Below, one piece after another: positions 26,130 through 32,654 of a stretch of 64,000 nucleotides of DNA. The position numbers and the translations under genes are program-made. Position 1 is the first letter of the stretch; each line of letters begins with the position of its first letter. The notes below the pieces were generated by a model. That model was not told where the DNA came from, did not search any database, and was given only the letters and a program-made list of their open reading frames with translations. The stretch comes from Shigella phage Henu12, in the sequence record OQ834936; one strand, 5' to 3'.

Positions 26130-28829
26130 ATGGACAATGTAGATTTCGAAAAATTACATTTGGTTGGTGATACAGAAACTGATGGGTTGCTCCTTGAGTT
26201 TACAAAAGCACACGTAATGGCTTTCGCAGACTATAAAGATGACAGTGATGAACCTGCTGTGTGGGTTTTCACTGATGAGCCTATTCTTGGTCACAAGTAT
26301 ACAAAATACATCAAAGGTGGTCTGCGTGAAGGTGTTGAGTTTGCACTGAAAGCTAAACGTCTTTGTATCCACAATGGTCTTGGTTATGACTGGTGGGTGT
26401 TTAATCACATTGCACCTGACCTGTGGAACTTTGAGAATCCTAAGTGTAAGCCTTGGAGTGACTTCTTTCAGGATTCACTTATCCAATCTCGCGTACAGTG
26501 GATGGATAGACCTACACCAAAAGGTTACAAAGGTGCTCATGGTTTGGCTGCATGGGGTGCTCGTGTTGGTGTTCGTAAACCAGAGATTGAAGAGTGGGGT
26601 GTATGGAATGCAGAGATTCTTACTCGTGTTGTAGAAGATATTAAGATTAACGCCAAAACTAAACGTGCTCTTGATAATGAGTACCTTAAGCTTAAGAAGT
26701 GTGGTGTTGACACTTATGAAACCTATATGCGAGCTAAAGAAACATCTTTCTGGATGAGCCAGCAAGCTATCAACGGTTGGAAAGCTGATGTAGAACTTAT
26801 GCAGTTCCATGTTAAAGAACTTGACAAGTTAACTAATGAGTTAGCTGCTGAGGTTGAGCCACACCTGCCACCAACTATCAAGACAAAAGGTAAGGTCACA
26901 GGTGAAGAGTTTGCTAAGTCTTGGAATGAGTATGTGGATACATTTGGTCACGTTGACGGCTTAAAAAGGATTACCAAGTACCCTAAGACAAAGTATCGTG
27001 AACAGATGCGTGAAGGTGAGTTGAAGCAATACCCTATCAAGCCATATGGAAAGCCAACTACAAAGATTTTTAACGTTGAGAAACGTAACTGCTACACACC
27101 AACTAATACGGTTACCAAAGAAGAGTACCCTGAAGGTTTCGTAGCAATGAAAGATGCTCGTGCAGTTTGTAATGAACTGAATGAGAAGATTGGGAAGAAG
27201 TGTAAAGATTGGAAACCAGTTAAGACTGTGAAGATTGTGAAGTACTATAATGTGCATGTTGTAAATCACTTCGAGTTGGAGTCAAGTCGCTACACTGGTT
27301 TGATTGATGCACCATTCACACCAATTGAGTTTGAAGTTTCACGAATGACTCAGGTAGCTGTGGTGAAGGATTACTTAAAATCTGTTGGTTGGATTCCTGA
27401 TGATTGGAACTACAAAAAAGATTCTGATGGTCGTCCGGTTAAGGTTTGCAGATTCAAAGACAACAAAAAGATGATTCGCAAACATCCTAAGTGGGATGAG
27501 ATGGTTGAGCGTTGTGGGTTGAACTATATTGAGCATGAAGGTGTCTATTACATCGAGCATAACTGGTCTGTTAAGAAGTACACAGATGTGCTTGAGCCTT
27601 GCTTGATTAGGACTTCACCAAAGCTTACAGAGTCTTCTTATGATACAATCGAAGGTGAGCTTGGACAGAAGATTGCGAAGTACTATACTTTGATGCACCG
27701 ACGCAGGACTATTGAGAACTCAAAGGATGATGAGAAAGGTTGGCTGAACCAGATTCGTCCAGATGGTCGTTTGAGTGCAGGTGCAATGGTGTTTGGTACT
27801 TCTACTGGACGTATGACTCAGTATGGTATTGTAAACGTACCTTCTGGTGCTGCTGTTTACGGTGAGCCAATGAGGGCAGTGTGGATTTGTGAAGAGGGAA
27901 CCAACGTAGTATCTGTTGATATGAACTCTGCACAGCTTGTACTACTCTGTAACTTCATGGGTGATAAAGACTTCACCAAAGCGGTAACAGAGGGTAAAGA
28001 AGAGATTGAGTTTGTTCGTCAAGAGGATGGAAGATACTACTGCAAACACTTTGACCAGTATCTGAATCCAGAGATTGACAAGTATCTGCGTTATGACTCT
28101 GAAAACGATTTGTACGTAGTTTACTCAGGGACTGATGCTCACACTCTGAACAGTATCTACTTCAGCCTTAATGATGAGCAAGATATCTTGACTTGTCGTG
28201 CTACTCAGGATGAGAATCTTCTTCATGAGATTAGCAAGGGACGTAAGAAAGCTAAGAATGGTATCTATGCCCTGTTGTTCGGTGCAGGTGATGAGAAGTT
28301 TGCTAAAACAATTAAAGCAGCAACTACTCAGGAAGGTGCATTGACTAAGCAGACTTACTTTGTGCGCTTGCCGAAGATTAAGAAACTGTTAGACAACTTG
28401 GAAGCTGATTTCAAAGCAACTAAGAAAGCACTTGAAGAGGTGTTTGGTAAAACTGCTGCGATAGCTAAAGGTGGTTTTGTGAAGGTTGCTGGAGCTTGGC
28501 TGTGGTGTAAGTCTCCACACAAGCTGTTAAATTACCTTTTGATGGGTTCAGAAAGTCAAGTCCAGAATGAAGCAATTAACCTTGCATGTCGTCGTATGAT
28601 TGATGAAGGTTTGATGAAGTTGAATGGTCGTAAACCAGCTATTGGCGCTCGCTTACTCTGTGCTTACCACGACGAAACAAGTTGGGAATGTCCAGAGCAC
28701 ATGACAGCAGATGTGAAAGCAGTAACTGACTGGTATTATGGTCAAGCATCTAAGAACCTTGGACTAAGGAAAGAAACCTTGGTAACAGGTACTGGTAAAG
28801 TTGGTAAGAGCTGGTATGAGGTACATTGA
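26130..28829 (+). CDS. DNA polymerase, family A, with 3'-5' exonuclease domain
   Basis: 899 aa; Exo I motif DTETDG near the N-terminus; motif C YHDE; terminal His characteristic of Pol I-type enzymes. Confidence 0.9.
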   Translation: MDNVDFEKLHLVGDTETDGLLLEFTKAHVMAFADYKDDSDEPAVWVFTDEPILGHKYTKYIKGGLREGVEFALKAKRLCIHNGLGYDWWVFNHIAPDLWNFENPKCKPWSDFFQDSLIQSRVQWMDRPTPKGYKGAHGLAAWGARVGVRKPEIEEWGVWNAEILTRVVEDIKINAKTKRALDNEYLKLKKCGVDTYETYMRAKETSFWMSQQAINGWKADVELMQFHVKELDKLTNELAAEVEPHLPPTIKTKGKVTGEEFAKSWNEYVDTFGHVDGLKRITKYPKTKYREQMREGELKQYPIKPYGKPTTKIFNVEKRNCYTPTNTVTKEEYPEGFVAMKDARAVCNELNEKIGKKCKDWKPVKTVKIVKYYNVHVVNHFELESSRYTGLIDAPFTPIEFEVSRMTQVAVVKDYLKSVGWIPDDWNYKKDSDGRPVKVCRFKDNKKMIRKHPKWDEMVERCGLNYIEHEGVYYIEHNWSVKKYTDVLEPCLIRTSPKLTESSYDTIEGELGQKIAKYYTLMHRRRTIENSKDDEKGWLNQIRPDGRLSAGAMVFGTSTGRMTQYGIVNVPSGAAVYGEPMRAVWICEEGTNVVSVDMNSAQLVLLCNFMGDKDFTKAVTEGKEEIEFVRQEDGRYYCKHFDQYLNPEIDKYLRYDSENDLYVVYSGTDAHTLNSIYFSLNDEQDILTCRATQDENLLHEISKGRKKAKNGIYALLFGAGDEKFAKTIKAATTQEGALTKQTYFVRLPKIKKLLDNLEADFKATKKALEEVFGKTAAIAKGGFVKVAGAWLWCKSPHKLLNYLLMGSESQVQNEAINLACRRMIDEGLMKLNGRKPAIGARLLCAYHDETSWECPEHMTADVKAVTDWYYGQASKNLGLRKETLVTGTGKVGKSWYEVH

Positions 28830-29341
28830 TGCGAGATTGTGGATTCACACATGAACAGTTAAAGTCTTGGTTAAACTATGACCCCGAAACAGGGGTCTTA
28901 ACGTGGATTGGCAGGCCTCCACATAGTAGTAGGGTGGTTATTGGGAGCCAAGCCGGAGCAATCAAGCGCACAAGGTCTGGTGTGTATATGCACACACAGA
29001 TTTTAGGATACAGGACAGGCAATCACCGAATTGCTTGGTTCTGGATGACAGGCAAGTGGCCTGATAAACACATTGACCACAAAGATGGAGATGGTTTGAA
29101 TAACGCTTGGGACAATCTCAGGGAGGCCACAAAAGAACAGAACATGTCTAATAGGAGACAACCCAGAACATCAAAAAACTTAAAAGGTACAAGTAGAAGC
29201 AAGTCTGGTAAGTGGATAGCCCAGATTAACCATAATGGCAAGACTATACATATAGGTACATACACAACAGAAGAAGAAGCCCATAAAGCTTACTGTGAAG
29301 CTGCTATTAAACTCCACGGAGAGTTTGCAAAACTAAGTTGA
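28826..29341 (+). CDS. HNH homing endonuclease with AP2 domain
   Basis: 171 aa; HNH motif IDHKDGDGLNNAWDNLREATKEQNMSN and AP2-like segment; shares YDPETGV(L/F)TW with 18747-19247; start overlaps the polymerase stop. Confidence 0.75.
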   Translation: MMRDCGFTHEQLKSWLNYDPETGVLTWIGRPPHSSRVVIGSQAGAIKRTRSGVYMHTQILGYRTGNHRIAWFWMTGKWPDKHIDHKDGDGLNNAWDNLREATKEQNMSNRRQPRTSKNLKGTSRSKSGKWIAQINHNGKTIHIGTYTTEEEAHKAYCEAAIKLHGEFAKLS

Positions 29342-29392
29342 CAAGGTGCTCATGGAAGAGTACCTTATACTATATCTTGTATAGGAGGTTAC

Positions 29393-29611
29393 ATGACACT
29401 TTCAGACGTTATCCAACAACTTCAGGTAAGTGGTTACACTCAAGAGCAAATTGATGAGCTAAACATCATATCCATGCCAAACCGTTTTGTTAAAGCTTTT
29501 GGGTTAGAAGTTGTAAGGATGGCACATATACTCATTGTGGATGGTCTTCTTATCAAAGACAGAACTGGTGCTTTGAAAGGTAAGAGAATCGATATCACGG
29601 AGATATTATGA
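29393..29611 (+). CDS. hypothetical protein
   Basis: 72 aa ORF with AGGAGG RBS. Confidence 0.45.
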   Translation: MTLSDVIQQLQVSGYTQEQIDELNIISMPNRFVKAFGLEVVRMAHILIVDGLLIKDRTGALKGKRIDITEIL

Positions 29612-29817
29612 GTCACCGTGGTAGAACTCATCTTGCCATGATGCAAGGGGCTTCAAAAGAGACTATCAAGAATCGTAAGAAAACTCTTTTTGACAGAATG
29701 AATAGACTCATTGACAATGCAAGTCTACCTAACTCTGAAAAGGTTTTCTTGAAAGGGAATCTGAAGAGTATTGCACAGGAACTTATTGACATTGAATTTT
29801 GGAGACACCAAAAATGA
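29608..29817 (+). CDS. hypothetical protein
   Basis: 69 aa basic ORF, translationally coupled to neighbours. Confidence 0.45.
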   Translation: MSHRGRTHLAMMQGASKETIKNRKKTLFDRMNRLIDNASLPNSEKVFLKGNLKSIAQELIDIEFWRHQK

Positions 29818-30017
29818 CTTATGAAGAAGCTATTGAAGCCATGAAGAGTGGTCACAAAGTACGTAATGAAAATTTCACATCTGATGAGTTCTTCGAAATG
29901 AAAGATGGGAAGATTGTCTGTGAAATGGGTTACCCAATGGCTACATGGTATAAGGGAGAACCTTGGCAGAAAACTGGATGGAGTATCTTTAATGAAATTT
30001 TACACCATTTGGGGTAG
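29814..30017 (+). CDS. DUF2829-like small protein (candidate Tad2-like anti-Thoeris sponge)
   Basis: 68 aa from the ATG in ATGA overlap with the upstream stop; MTYEEAIEAMKSGHKVRNENF...W pattern resembles the DUF2829 N-terminal signature. Confidence 0.4.
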   Translation: MTYEEAIEAMKSGHKVRNENFTSDEFFEMKDGKIVCEMGYPMATWYKGEPWQKTGWSIFNEILHHLG

Positions 30018-30135
30018 AGTCGGTAAAGGTTATGACTGGATTCTCCTTAAAACAAATGTTAAAAGTAATGAGATAGTTTACTACAAAGTCTATTACCATA
30101 AAACTTTTAGAGAGGTAGAGTATCGTGAGCAGTAG
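29992..30135 (+). CDS. hypothetical small protein
   Basis: 47 aa from an ATG with GGAG RBS; shares a W-R-G-x-GYDW-hydrophobic motif with the next ORF. Confidence 0.3.
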   Translation: MKFYTIWGRVGKGYDWILLKTNVKSNEIVYYKVYYHKTFREVEYREQ

Positions 30136-30376
30136 AGAAGAAGAAGCTTTAGCAATCTTCAAGAATGAAGATAAATCAATATCTTTTGTATCAGAGGCTT
30201 GGTGCAGGGGCTTAGGTTATGATTGGTATCTCTTCTTATGTGCTAAGAAAGATGTTAAACCAGTTGATGAAACCCGATTCAAAGAACTGTATACTGTCTG
30301 CCAAGAGGGTTATGAAGAACACTACGAAGGCTCTTTGAATCCTGTAAATTCAAAAGCTTCAGATTTATTTTATTGA
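30125..30376 (+). CDS. hypothetical protein (paralog-like to 29992-30135)
   Basis: 83 aa, GTG start in the ORF track; motif WCRGLGYDWYLFL. Confidence 0.4.
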   Translation: MSSREEEALAIFKNEDKSISFVSEAWCRGLGYDWYLFLCAKKDVKPVDETRFKELYTVCQEGYEEHYEGSLNPVNSKASDLFY

Positions 30377-30386
30377 GAGGTCTAAA

Positions 30387-30623
30387 ATGTTAAAATTATT
30401 GATACCAGCTTTAGTAGTTCTACTAGTTGGGTGTAACCCTTCTTACGAGAATAAGGATGCTTCTTACAGACTTCCTCCAGAAATGCAAGACTGCAAGATT
30501 TATAAGCTTAATGGTGATGCAACTAGCAGGGATGTTATTGTAGTTCGCTGTCCAAATTCTCAGACGACTACTTCTTACAAGTATGGAAAGAATAGTCAGT
30601 CACATACTACTGTTTTTGATTGA
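30387..30623 (+). CDS. putative lipoprotein
   Basis: 78 aa; signal peptide with lipobox LLVGC. Confidence 0.5.
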   Translation: MLKLLIPALVVLLVGCNPSYENKDASYRLPPEMQDCKIYKLNGDATSRDVIVVRCPNSQTTTSYKYGKNSQSHTTVFD

Positions 30624-30633
30624 GGATATTAAT

Positions 30634-30840
30634 ATGCAGGTTCTGGTAAATTTTATCTATAAGTATGAAAACATCTTCAGCACCATGACTGAAGGTCAAC
30701 GCAATCCAGTTATCCCACGGGAAGGGGAGATTGTTGAGATTAATGACTGGAACCACAGAGTTGCAGAGGTCAAGCATAAACTTAAAGATGGTTATGACCA
30801 CCAAGTTGTAAATGTGTATTTAGAAGGTAAGTGGCAATGA
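30634..30840 (+). CDS. hypothetical protein
   Basis: 68 aa from an ATG preceded by GAGG. Confidence 0.4.
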   Translation: MQVLVNFIYKYENIFSTMTEGQRNPVIPREGEIVEINDWNHRVAEVKHKLKDGYDHQVVNVYLEGKWQ

Positions 30841-30931
30841 GCATCTTACATATCATCTCTGAAGATTTTGGAGGGTGCTCTTGGCACTCATTTTTCACAA
30901 AAGGTTGTCTAGCTTGTGAGGCACGTAAAAA

Positions 30932-32032
30932 ATGACAATTCTGTACAAACAAAACAAAGATGGTTCTTTCAACGTTTGGTCATGTGTTGCTGTAGGTGAT
31001 AAAGTTGTTACAACCTACGGTAAAGAAAATGGCAAGATGATGTTCGAAGAGTACACAGCAGAACCAAAGAACATTGGTAAGAAGAATGAGCGTAATGCTG
31101 AACAGCAAGCTCTCTTTGAAGTTGCTGCTAAGTACAAGAAGCAGGTTGACCGTAAAGGGTATGCTTACACAAAGTCTGAAGCAGAGAATGTTGAGAAGGT
31201 TGGTGTACAGCTTGCTCAGGATGCTTCCAAGATAAGTCACAAGAAGTATCTGGTATTCCCTGCCGATGCTCAACCTAAACTTGATGGTGTTCGTTGCAGG
31301 ATTTCAAGAGATGCTGACTCAGAAAGTTTTACGGCATATTCTCGTGAGAACACGGTATACAACATTCCTGTAGAGTTGATTCCTGATGTTCTTCTTATGC
31401 TGAAACTGCACAAAGATGTTGAGGATTTCGATGGTGAGATTTATGCTCATGGTTGGGACTTGGAAGATATTGTATCTATGATTAAGAATGCTGACAATCC
31501 AGACCGTCACCTTCTTAAGTTCTACTGGTATGATATCTGTGACAAGACTAAATCTTGGCCTGAGCGTCGTGAAGTTATTGAGACTTCACCTTTAAATGAC
31601 CTGAGAAATGGCTGTAGAGTTGTCCCTGTTAAATCTCGTCGTGTTAACTCTTGGGAAGAATTTGACACTGCTCATGATAAGTGGGTTGAAGCGAAGTTTG
31701 AAGGGGCAATGTACCGTTCAATCTCCCCAGATTCATTCTATGAGTGTGGTCACCGTTCATACTTCTTGATTAAACATAAGAAGATGCACACCAAAGAGTT
31801 CACAGTAACGGGTGTGAAGACTGATAAGCGTGGTCATGGCAAGTTCGTTGTAGAGACTCTTCCTAACGTCTTTGTAGATGTTTCATGGAAAACTACACAC
31901 GAGAAGAAAAAGTATCTTGCTGAACATCCTGAAGAGTTTATCGGGAAGCCTTTAACGGTTCAGTTCCAGAAGATGACTCGTAAGGGTTCTTTACAGTTCC
32001 CTGTTGGGCTAGTAATTCGAGACTATGAATAG
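30932..32032 (+). CDS. ATP-dependent DNA ligase
   Basis: 366 aa; adenylation motif I KLDGVRC; size matches T7-type ligases. Confidence 0.8.
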   Translation: MTILYKQNKDGSFNVWSCVAVGDKVVTTYGKENGKMMFEEYTAEPKNIGKKNERNAEQQALFEVAAKYKKQVDRKGYAYTKSEAENVEKVGVQLAQDASKISHKKYLVFPADAQPKLDGVRCRISRDADSESFTAYSRENTVYNIPVELIPDVLLMLKLHKDVEDFDGEIYAHGWDLEDIVSMIKNADNPDRHLLKFYWYDICDKTKSWPERREVIETSPLNDLRNGCRVVPVKSRRVNSWEEFDTAHDKWVEAKFEGAMYRSISPDSFYECGHRSYFLIKHKKMHTKEFTVTGVKTDKRGHGKFVVETLPNVFVDVSWKTTHEKKKYLAEHPEEFIGKPLTVQFQKMTRKGSLQFPVGLVIRDYE

Positions 32033-32195
32033 AGGCCAGTATGTTTAGTGCAATTGTTCTGTTTATATTTGTTGTTTTATCATTGGCTTACTTCACAAGT
32101 AAACTCTTAAGTATAACATACAAAGCAGCCTTAGCCCTTACTCTGTTGTCATTTGCAGTAAATGCAGCAGTTAGAATGTATTTAGTATAAAATTG

Positions 32196-32267: not shown

Positions 32268-32654
32268 GTGTTTATGAAAAAGTTACTTGTTGGTGTCATT
32301 GCTCTTGGTATGAGTTTTAGTGCAGCAGCTATGAAGATGCCTGAAGCAAACTTTAATGGTATCGCTTTAGAATCTTGTAAGATTGTACAGAAAATCGCTT
32401 CAAATGCTGGAGAGTTGACTAAACCGTTGTCTGCTCAGACTGTTCAAGAAATGACTGATAAGATGGTTGACTACAACTACCATTTTATGGGAGATTACTA
32501 TGACAGATTAGCAGATGAGATGGTCACTCAGAACGTTGACCTTCTTGATAGCAAAGGTATTGAGACTGTAGAAGATGTGAAAGACAACTTTATGCGTGAG
32601 TCTTTCAAAGGTGTTCAATACTTTATTGAAAATCGTCACTGCATGGGTTTATAA
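32268..32654 (+). CDS. putative secreted/periplasmic protein
   Basis: 128 aa; N-terminal signal peptide MKKLLVGVIALGMSFSAAA. Confidence 0.5.
   Translation: MFMKKLLVGVIALGMSFSAAAMKMPEANFNGIALESCKIVQKIASNAGELTKPLSAQTVQEMTDKMVDYNYHFMGDYYDRLADEMVTQNVDLLDSKGIETVEDVKDNFMRESFKGVQYFIENRHCMGL

Follow-up and report, generated by a model that had tools for sequence, protein, structure and literature searches.

Phages of the T4 type are known for hyperplastic regions, in which tightly coupled small open reading frames (ORFs) are gained and lost at gene boundaries and HNH endonucleases lie alongside. Among small phage proteins, Tad2 (Thoeris anti-defence 2) blocks bacterial immune signals; its Pfam family is PF11195 (formerly DUF2829), and HgmTad2 is the same protein as AcrIIA7. 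T5 Llp and T1/phi80 Cor are superinfection-exclusion lipoproteins, small products of virulent phages with cysteines in the mature part. Here we describe a locus that we compare with each of these systems, a string of eight small ORFs (o1 to o8) between the genes for family-A DNA polymerase (polA) and ATP-dependent DNA ligase of Shigella phage Henu12 (sequence record OQ834936; the window, the whole stretch analysed, is 64,000 nucleotides long). The string shows the same tight coupling, gain and loss at gene boundaries and neighbouring HNH endonuclease as the T4-type regions, and differs from them in that about half of its genes are conserved across the subfamily rather than plastic. We read it, with a probability of about 0.6, as eight real, translationally coupled small genes in a replication operon, lying at a recombination hotspot that mixes conserved genes with cargo and swaps cassettes the size of a gene where start and stop codons overlap. 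Two of its predicted products, a minimal Tad2-fold protein (o3) and a prolipoprotein (o6), stand out; apart from these, the region is a typical small-gene string.

Conserved genes and cargo between polA and the ligase gene

The window belongs to the genus Mooglevirus (Ounavirinae, the Felix O1-like myoviruses). Its positions 28800-31000 were 94.7% identical over their full length to Citrobacter phages Michonne and Maleficent, and matched 242 further phage records, nearly all of them Felix O1-like myoviruses, the Ounavirinae being represented by Mooglevirus, Felixounavirus and Suspvirus. The region is already annotated in >200 GenBank genomes and its genes have been deposited as 'hypothetical protein' in hundreds of genomes; o1 to o8 are the same gene calls as CPT_Michonne38-45 (gp38-45), all of which carry that label. 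Felix O1-like phages are used in Salmonella typing and are therapy candidates against E. coli, Shigella, Citrobacter and Salmonella, and sorting counter-defence cargo from 'hypothetical' small genes helps in the prediction of host range.

All eight ORFs are on the + strand: o1 (29393-29611, 72 aa, phrog_4230), o2 (29608-29817, 69 aa, phrog_5180), o3 (29814-30017, 67 aa, with the predicted minimal Tad2/DUF2829 fold), o4 (29992-30135, 47 aa, phrog_2381), o5 (30125-30376, 83 aa, GTG start, phrog_9065), o6 (30387-30623, a 78-aa prolipoprotein, phrog_902), o7 (30634-30840, 68 aa, phrog_4427) and o8 (30837-30935, 32 aa, phrog_20095). The first seven, of 47-83 aa, have the coordinates, sizes and tight packing described in an earlier annotation made from the letters alone (the sequence-only reading), which overlooked the eighth coupled ORF, o8. 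ATGA overlaps join o1/o2, o2/o3, o7/o8 and o8/ligase, longer overlaps of 26 nt and 11 nt join o3/o4 and o4/o5, and 10-nt gaps precede o6 and o7. A GGAG/GAGG-like (Shine-Dalgarno-like) motif was found 6-13 nt upstream of every ORF. Compared with 13 related loci, which served for all analyses of selection and gene presence, the ratio of non-synonymous to synonymous substitution rates (dN/dS) of o1 to o7 was 0-0.4: 0.16-0.33 for o1 against its diverged (Felixounavirus) copies, 0-0.09 for o2, 0.10-0.14 for o3, 0.06-0.19 for o4, 0.15-0.19 for o5, 0.01-0.11 for o6 against most relatives and 0.40 against Moogle, and 0.08-0.37 for o7. Strong purifying selection was thus evident for o2, o4 and o6, and o7 was more loosely conserved than these three; o8 was too short, with too few substitutions, for a test of selection. 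Frame disruption in close relatives, which the sequence-only reading had named as a sign against its proposal, was not seen at any of the 13 loci, each ORF being intact wherever it was present. Since the Shine-Dalgarno-like motifs, the low dN/dS and the intact orthologues all agree, o1 to o7 are real protein-coding genes.

The string fills the interval between polA (26130-28829, +) and the ligase gene (30932-32032, +), inside a replication and nucleotide-metabolism operon: a long + strand block in which polA and ligase are followed by a helix-turn-helix (HTH) regulator, DHFR and ThyA (thymidylate synthase). Promoter-like and terminator-like sites were no more frequent in the region than in shuffled sequence. 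With no such excess and with the long + strand block, the simplest reading makes the string a part of the polA-ligase transcription unit that is transcribed together with the replication genes. Counting against our reading, a literature search found neither expression-timing data for any Ounavirinae nor a Felix O1 transcriptome.

The comparison between relatives that the sequence-only reading had called for revealed strong variability of the interval. Relatives covered 37-100% of the query, and the number of genes between polA and ligase ranged from 2 in VpaE1 to 9-10. Gene presence was scored with a tblastn matrix over the 13 loci and by counting phage records in the whole collection. Four genes, o2, o4, o6 and o7, occur in most of the ~250-315 Ounavirinae records: o2 at 12 of 13 loci (VpaE1 is the sole absence) and in 284 phage records, some of which are of Erwinia and Enterobacter phages; o4 at 9 loci and in 242 records; o6 at 12 loci and in 573 records; and o7 at all 13 loci and in 255 records, all Ounavirinae-like. 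The variable members are a homing endonuclease gene with HNH_3 and AP2 domains upstream of o1 (HNH-AP2; 5/13 loci), the type of o1, o3 (4/13 loci; 459 phage records in all, few of them Ounavirinae), o5 (7/13 loci, in Mooglevirus and Suspvirus; 46 records) and o8 (5/13 loci). The interval therefore holds two classes of gene, near-core o2, o4, o6 and o7 on the one hand and swappable cargo on the other, the latter consisting of HNH-AP2, alternative o1 paralogues, o5, o8 and a 311-bp cassette of o3 and o4.

This cassette (29815..30125) is a presence/absence block whose two ends fall on TGA-containing start/stop overlaps. In a DNA alignment, these 311 bp were cleanly missing from Sf14, CHB7 and Moogle when they were set against the window and Sf17. 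The start codon of o5 changes with it, being the ATG of the o2 ATGA overlap where the cassette is missing and GTG where it is present. Natural chimeric genes also occur in relatives and confirm frequent recombination in the interval: gp067 of Shigella phage vB_SflM_004 joins an o1-type N-terminus to the C-terminal two-thirds of o3, and in two other chimeric proteins o3 runs directly into the nine C-terminal residues of o5, o4 and the rest of o5 being deleted. Extra genes of relatives (SFPB_034, a 176-aa ORF of SUT_S720, CHB7 gp43 and FO1a gp88) had no Pfam domain.

The sequence-only reading had proposed that the string is an accessory island, commonly a place for host-takeover and anti-defence functions. 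In its strongest form, with every gene a dispensable piece of arms-race cargo, such a reading would account for the great variability of the interval between relatives, for the small size of all products and their lack of housekeeping domains, for the one gene with a Tad2 fold and for the homing endonuclease alongside. Several observations nevertheless make it unlikely. First, the record counts of o2, o4, o6 and o7 reach 242-573, and the four genes are present at 9-13 of the 13 loci. Second, selection on the conserved genes is the opposite of what is expected for fast-evolving arms-race genes, with a dN/dS of 0.01-0.1 for o6 and with o2 as the most conserved small gene of the string: its protein is 100% identical in 6 Mooglevirus loci, in four of which dS reaches 0.17-0.27 while dN = 0 (the Michonne and Mordin copies are identical at the DNA level too). 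Such extreme conservation argues for a core role of o2 rather than an arms-race role. Third, the string is embedded in the replication operon. The region is thus a hotspot mixing conserved small genes with swappable cargo and not a pure accessory island, so that the earlier proposal holds for the cargo that comes and goes and fails for the genes common to most Ounavirinae. For these near-core genes, whose conservation is observed directly, fixed roles in the infection cycle are most likely. As for anti-defence content, a single candidate emerged, o3, which had not been singled out earlier. The phage accessory-gene screen of Silas et al. does not mention the small-gene locus between polA and ligase.

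A minimal Tad2/DUF2829-fold family

Of the remote-homology searches and structure predictions suggested by the sequence-only reading, those on o3 returned a fold. The sole Pfam hint was a match to the Tad2-like family PF11195 (22.4 bits, E 1.8e-4, profile positions 1-40 of 73), which was also matched by 9 of 13 close o3 homologues at E<0.1 and, at E<0.01, by 24 of the 83 members of the wider family (best E 1.9e-6). A full HMMER search with the 13-sequence o3 alignment gathered 186 clusters at 50% identity, mostly of 59-70 aa. The AlphaFold2 model of o3, an N-terminal helix followed by beta-strands, was confident, with a predicted local distance difference test score (pLDDT) of 87. Searched against the PDB with Foldseek, the model returned SPO1 Tad2, Myroides Tad2 and SptTad2 at the top with template-modelling (TM) scores of 0.58-0.64, at E-values that were not significant, as expected for a protein that small; in BFVD its matches included viral proteins named 'Thoeris anti-defense 2-like' or 'DUF2829', some of only 60-63 aa. 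When the 83-sequence alignment of the o3 family was compared by hhalign with 12 experimentally examined Tad2 proteins, taken from Table S2 of Hadary et al. (10.1101/2025.08.24.671296), the probability was 95.9% (E 6.4e-9). Sequence searches of the PDB were not decisive by themselves, the single o3 sequence and its 13-sequence profile giving only chance matches to LIM domains. On the strength of the fold search and the hhalign comparison, predicted fold and homology together establish o3 as a minimal member of the Tad2/DUF2829-fold family.

What o3 does can be stated less firmly. Among Tad2 homologues the scaffold has come to carry other pockets and to bind other ligands, such as His-ADPR, cUMP/cCMP, cGG/cGAMP and N7-cADPR (10.1101/2025.08.24.671296; 10.1101/2023.11.15.567273), which makes it plausible that o3 is a sponge for a different ligand. 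We hold the sponge function only tentatively, at somewhat less than even odds, on the basis of the predicted fold and sequence. If it applies, o3 would oligomerise early in infection, the oligomer would sequester the small molecule that serves as immune signal in an abortive-infection system of the host, for example Thoeris, CBASS or Pycsar, and the effector would thereby be kept from firing. The distribution of the family offers circumstantial evidence. Homologues of o3 were found in 459 phage genomes, among them T5-like Epseptimavirus, Vequintavirinae, Phapecoctavirus, phi92-like and T4-like Klebsiella phages, and in a T5-like phage the homologue lies within the left terminal repeat, beside the A2 gene. 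In T5-like phages this repeat, the home of the pre-early genes, enters the cell ahead of all other DNA. Both the patchy spread over unrelated virulent phages and this position fit counter-defence cargo. A natural cassette pair exists in Sf17, which has o3 and o4, and Sf14, which has neither.

A number of observations weigh against this account of o3. The Pfam score of o3 is under the gathering cut-off of 25 bits, the hhalign alignment with Tad2 spans only the N-terminal 35 columns, and the 83-sequence profile reached SptTad2 and ModTad2 in the PDB at E 0.08-0.75 only. The ligand of SPO1 Tad2 is held by W25/N26, W73, S76, T78 and D79 (10.1101/2023.05.01.538930), and in HgmTad2 the mutations W21A/N22A and S90A/T92A/D93A lead to marked loss of glycocyclic ADP-ribose (gcADPR) binding (10.1101/2023.11.15.567273). 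At the gcADPR-binding positions of HgmTad2, o3 has F21/T22 and G48/E49/P50. The motifs of the o3 family are missing from all 84 sponge proteins that Hadary et al. (10.1101/2025.08.24.671296) tested, and the supplementary data of that study hold no sequence of the o3 type. Finally, SPO1 Tad2 exceeds o3 by ~20 residues, and most of its beta2-beta3 insertion, which belongs to the dimer interface there (10.1101/2023.05.01.538930), has no counterpart in o3; by analogy, the Tad2 homotetramer and its ligand pockets between protomers may not form in o3.

From described Tad2 proteins o3 differs in several respects. SPO1 Tad2, ModTad2 and HgmTad2 have 80-104 aa, compared with 67 aa for o3 and almost no beta2-beta3 insertion. 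The GWNG ligand motif of Tad2 reads NFTS in o3, position 21 being F in 78 of 83 family members and position 22 being T in 44 and S in 13. From the C-terminal W-x-x-S-x-(T/S)-D...D-W motif the tryptophans are kept (W45 in 59/83, W56 in 78/83), whereas the S and D of W-x-x-S-x-x-D are missing: the S/T/D positions of o3 are G48, E49 and P50, with D at position 50 in 21/83 members, and one residue has to be gapped for the alignment. The near-invariant residues of the o3 family are instead G13, F21, E25, E37, G39, Y40, W45, W51, G55 and W56. With the canonical gcADPR contacts replaced by this family-specific set, the ligand of o3, if it has one, is probably a different one.

These same residues can be read in another way: o3 would share the Tad2 fold without being a sponge for nucleotide signals, and would instead bind proteins, for example, or act as a module of larger proteins. 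The missing canonical ligand residues, the invariant acidic and aromatic set of its own (E25, E37, Y40, W51) and the loss of most of the insertion that aids Tad2 dimerisation would all fit, as would a further observation made with the o3-family profile: homologous domains of o3-like fold occur inside some proteins of 444-3300 aa, sometimes as 4-6 repeated stretches. On the other side stand the variety of pockets and ligands reported for the Tad2 scaffold (10.1101/2025.08.24.671296; 10.1101/2023.11.15.567273) and, again, the patchy spread and T5-like terminal-repeat location, and we regard a non-sponge role as possible though rather doubtful.

The nearest relatives by length are short proteins of 60-63 aa labelled 'DUF2829 domain-containing', such as those of virus sp. 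ctML55 and Klebsiella phage vB_KpnM_KpS110; that such short proteins carry this label in UniProt is already known. Their predicted fold is o3-like (Foldseek E 1e-3 to 2e-2, TM 0.62-0.67), their sequences share only 19-33% identity with o3, and those in UniProt/BFVD are all uncharacterised. These proteins and the 186 o3-family clusters are probably members of one short subfamily. That this short Tad2-like family of ~60-70 aa is an uncharacterised class of sponge, with a site made of F21/E25/E37/Y40/W45/W51/W56 and a different, possibly unrecognised messenger of Enterobacterales, is a speculative extension that we consider improbable. No paper linking Tad2 to Ounavirinae was found in the literature. 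As a stripped-down Tad2-fold protein that does not have the known ligand contacts and is common to hundreds of unrelated virulent phages, o3 is the one concrete lead from the interval; if it does bind a signal, the Tad2 scaffold would serve more ligands than those known so far, and o3 would represent its minimal form.

The o6 lipoprotein

The sequence-only reading had recognised a lipoprotein with a lipobox, and this was borne out. The N-terminus of o6, MLKLLIPALVVLLVGC, has the form M-L-K-LLIPALVVLL-V-G-C16, that is, a lysine, a hydrophobic stretch and the lipobox LVGC, and so has the charged N-terminus, hydrophobic region (h-region) and lipobox [LVI][ASTVI][GAS]C expected of a substrate of signal peptidase II. 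K3, L13, G15, C16 and N17 were invariant in 12 o6 homologues while the h-region varied, and the mature part was highly conserved and contained two conserved cysteines. No other + strand ORF in the 64-kb window has a lipobox. By the Lol-avoidance rule of E. coli, lipoproteins that do not have Asp at position +2 are sorted to the outer membrane. Since the invariant residue at +2 is Asn17 and not Asp, o6 is probably anchored in the outer membrane. After export and lipid modification at Cys16, the protein would reach the outer membrane and act on an envelope target, and its strong conservation suggests a fixed envelope role. A point against this picture is the poor AlphaFold2 model of o6 (pLDDT 56).

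Homologues of o6 occur in Vibrio, Acinetobacter and Yersinia phages and in jumbo coliphages, all of them unannotated. No Pfam or NCBIfam match was found for o6. A precomputed Pfam tag, PF16225, is attached to all 11 o6 homologues, and hmmscan against current Pfam-A at E up to 10 did not return PF16225.

Superinfection exclusion, the function that had been suggested for this lipoprotein, was supported by none of the tests. Its most specific version is that o6 is an exclusion lipoprotein of the T5 Llp or T1 Cor type, which binds the periplasmic face of the receptor and blocks further infection. In its favour, o6 is a small, probably outer-membrane lipoprotein of Llp-like size, its two conserved mature cysteines could form a disulfide, and its place in the operon would imply non-late expression. 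There is, in contrast, no sequence similarity: the o6 family profile, run over every chain of the PDB with E allowed up to 10, returned neither Llp (8A60; PMC9586334) nor anything else. The Llp gene adjoins a receptor-binding gene (PMC9586334), whereas o6 lies in a replication module between polA and ligase. Ounavirinae are reported to use lipopolysaccharide (LPS) and not protein receptors, unlike the phages of the Llp/Cor systems, which use a TonB-dependent transporter (PMC8594841, PMC9586334), and the homologues of o6 are found in phages with very different hosts and receptors (Vibrio, Acinetobacter, jumbo). Given that o6 has no receptor-binding neighbour and that Ounavirinae bind LPS, we consider a receptor block of the Llp type quite unlikely; exclusion by some other means is one possibility, and a guess.

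We also considered whether o6 is the outer-membrane subunit of a spanin (Rz1-like). It is a small lipoprotein and has a weak PHROG match to an Rz-like spanin (E 0.02). This candidate was rejected as highly improbable: there is no adjacent or enclosing gene for an inner spanin, o5 and o7 having no transmembrane segment; the gene lies within the replication operon; and the authors of the Michonne genome report inner and outer spanin genes elsewhere (PMC4591319), the o6 orthologue gp43 being 'hypothetical'. We therefore retain the reading of o6 as a conserved lipoprotein with a probable outer-membrane anchor. Conserved in LPS-binding myoviruses and present also in Vibrio, Acinetobacter and jumbo phages, its family is a second cheap target for experiments.

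The o4/o5 motif and the other genes of the region

Two adjacent genes, o4 and o5, had been said to look like tandem paralogues on the basis of a shared motif. The motif is real, although one residue has to be gapped for alignment: o4 reads WGRVGKGYDWIL where o5 reads WCR-GLGYDWYL, or, in a longer form, WGRVGKGYDWILL where o5 reads WCR-GLGYDWYLF. For an origin by local duplication speak the common pattern W-x-R-(x)-G-x-G-Y-D-W-x-L, a BLASTP E of 0.001 between the two proteins, a Smith-Waterman shuffle test in which 53 of 50000 shuffles did as well (p ~0.001), and the invariance of W, R, G, D-W and L-L within the o4 family. The two genes also take the same slot directly upstream of o6 in different genera, o4 in Felixounavirus and o5 in cassette-free Mooglevirus, which suggests positional equivalents. 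Yet the shuffle test gives only ~0.03 once corrected for 28 ORF pairs, and comparison of the families by profile does not establish the relationship: hhalign of the two family alignments gave a probability of 2% (E 0.024 over 18 columns), and reciprocal hidden Markov model (HMM) searches of a 1368-ORF database gave E 2.6 and 0.28. CHB7 gp43, a true distant paralogue of o5 (o5 HMM E 7e-7), keeps W, Y, Y-L and C and does not have GYDW. Moreover, the two genes became adjacent by insertion of the o3 and o4 cassette and not by duplication in place. Tandem paralogy is thus not established, and we regard it as doubtful; o4 and o5 may instead be divergent positional equivalents that cassette insertion made neighbours.

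In CHB7 (Suspvirus), gp43 is a second copy of the o5 family and lies downstream of o7, so that o5-like genes can duplicate within the same interval. The o5 family comprises 3 clusters only in a set of 5.8 billion proteins. Derivation of o4 or o5 from the o3 family, some members of which contain 'GYDW'-like strings, was tried as well and rejected (hhalign 0.1% and 0.7%). The PHROG match of o4 (phrog_2381, a family of unknown function) had E 3.7e-19.

The remaining small genes gave few clues to function. PHROG families of unknown function were the only matches of o1 (phrog_4230, E 7e-35), o2, o7 (phrog_4427, E 4e-40) and o8 (phrog_20095, E 2e-26; Michonne gp45). Searches of Pfam, NCBIfam and PDB sequences with o1, o2, o5 and o7 returned nothing below E 0.01, and o4 and o8 had no match in Pfam or NCBIfam. 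Two paralogue types of o1 exist, which flank o2 in phages mio and D4. Compared with Michonne, o1 of the window shows 7.5 non-synonymous and 0.5 synonymous differences, all at residues 5-11, where the window has DVIQQLQ, of the Felixounavirus paralogue type, and Michonne has EIESQLK, which resembles the other type. By its sequence, this stretch resembles a short tract of gene conversion involving the o1 paralogues. The 32-aa product of o8 is rich in Cys and His (C14, H18, C24, C27) and may be a tiny metal-binding peptide. At 30873-30889, inside o8 and immediately ahead of the ligase gene, lies a terminator-like hairpin with a T-run behind it.

Upstream of the string, the HNH-AP2 gene (28826..29341, +, 171 aa) has a start codon that overlaps the polA stop. 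Its product scored over the cut-offs for Pfam HNH_3 (53.9 bits) and AP2 (38.1 bits) and was 98.8% identical to the copy of Escherichia phage heid, a Felixounavirus, compared with 88% to the copy of Michonne, in other respects the closest relative; the gene is missing from 8 of 13 related loci. A closest copy in another genus, together with this sporadic presence, suggests recent horizontal movement of the gene, as judged from sequence comparison.

Downstream of the string, two products that appear envelope-directed are encoded after the ligase gene, one of 49 aa directly behind it (32041-32190) that looks like two hydrophobic helices and one of 128 aa (32268-32654) with an N-terminal segment resembling a signal peptide; both matched only PHROG families of unknown function. 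In SUT_S720 and VpaE1, the annotation makes the 3' part of the DNA polymerase gene a short coding sequence of its own, which in VpaE1 is preceded by a gene for 'endonuclease VII'; in some Felixounaviruses, an inserted element may split the polymerase gene.

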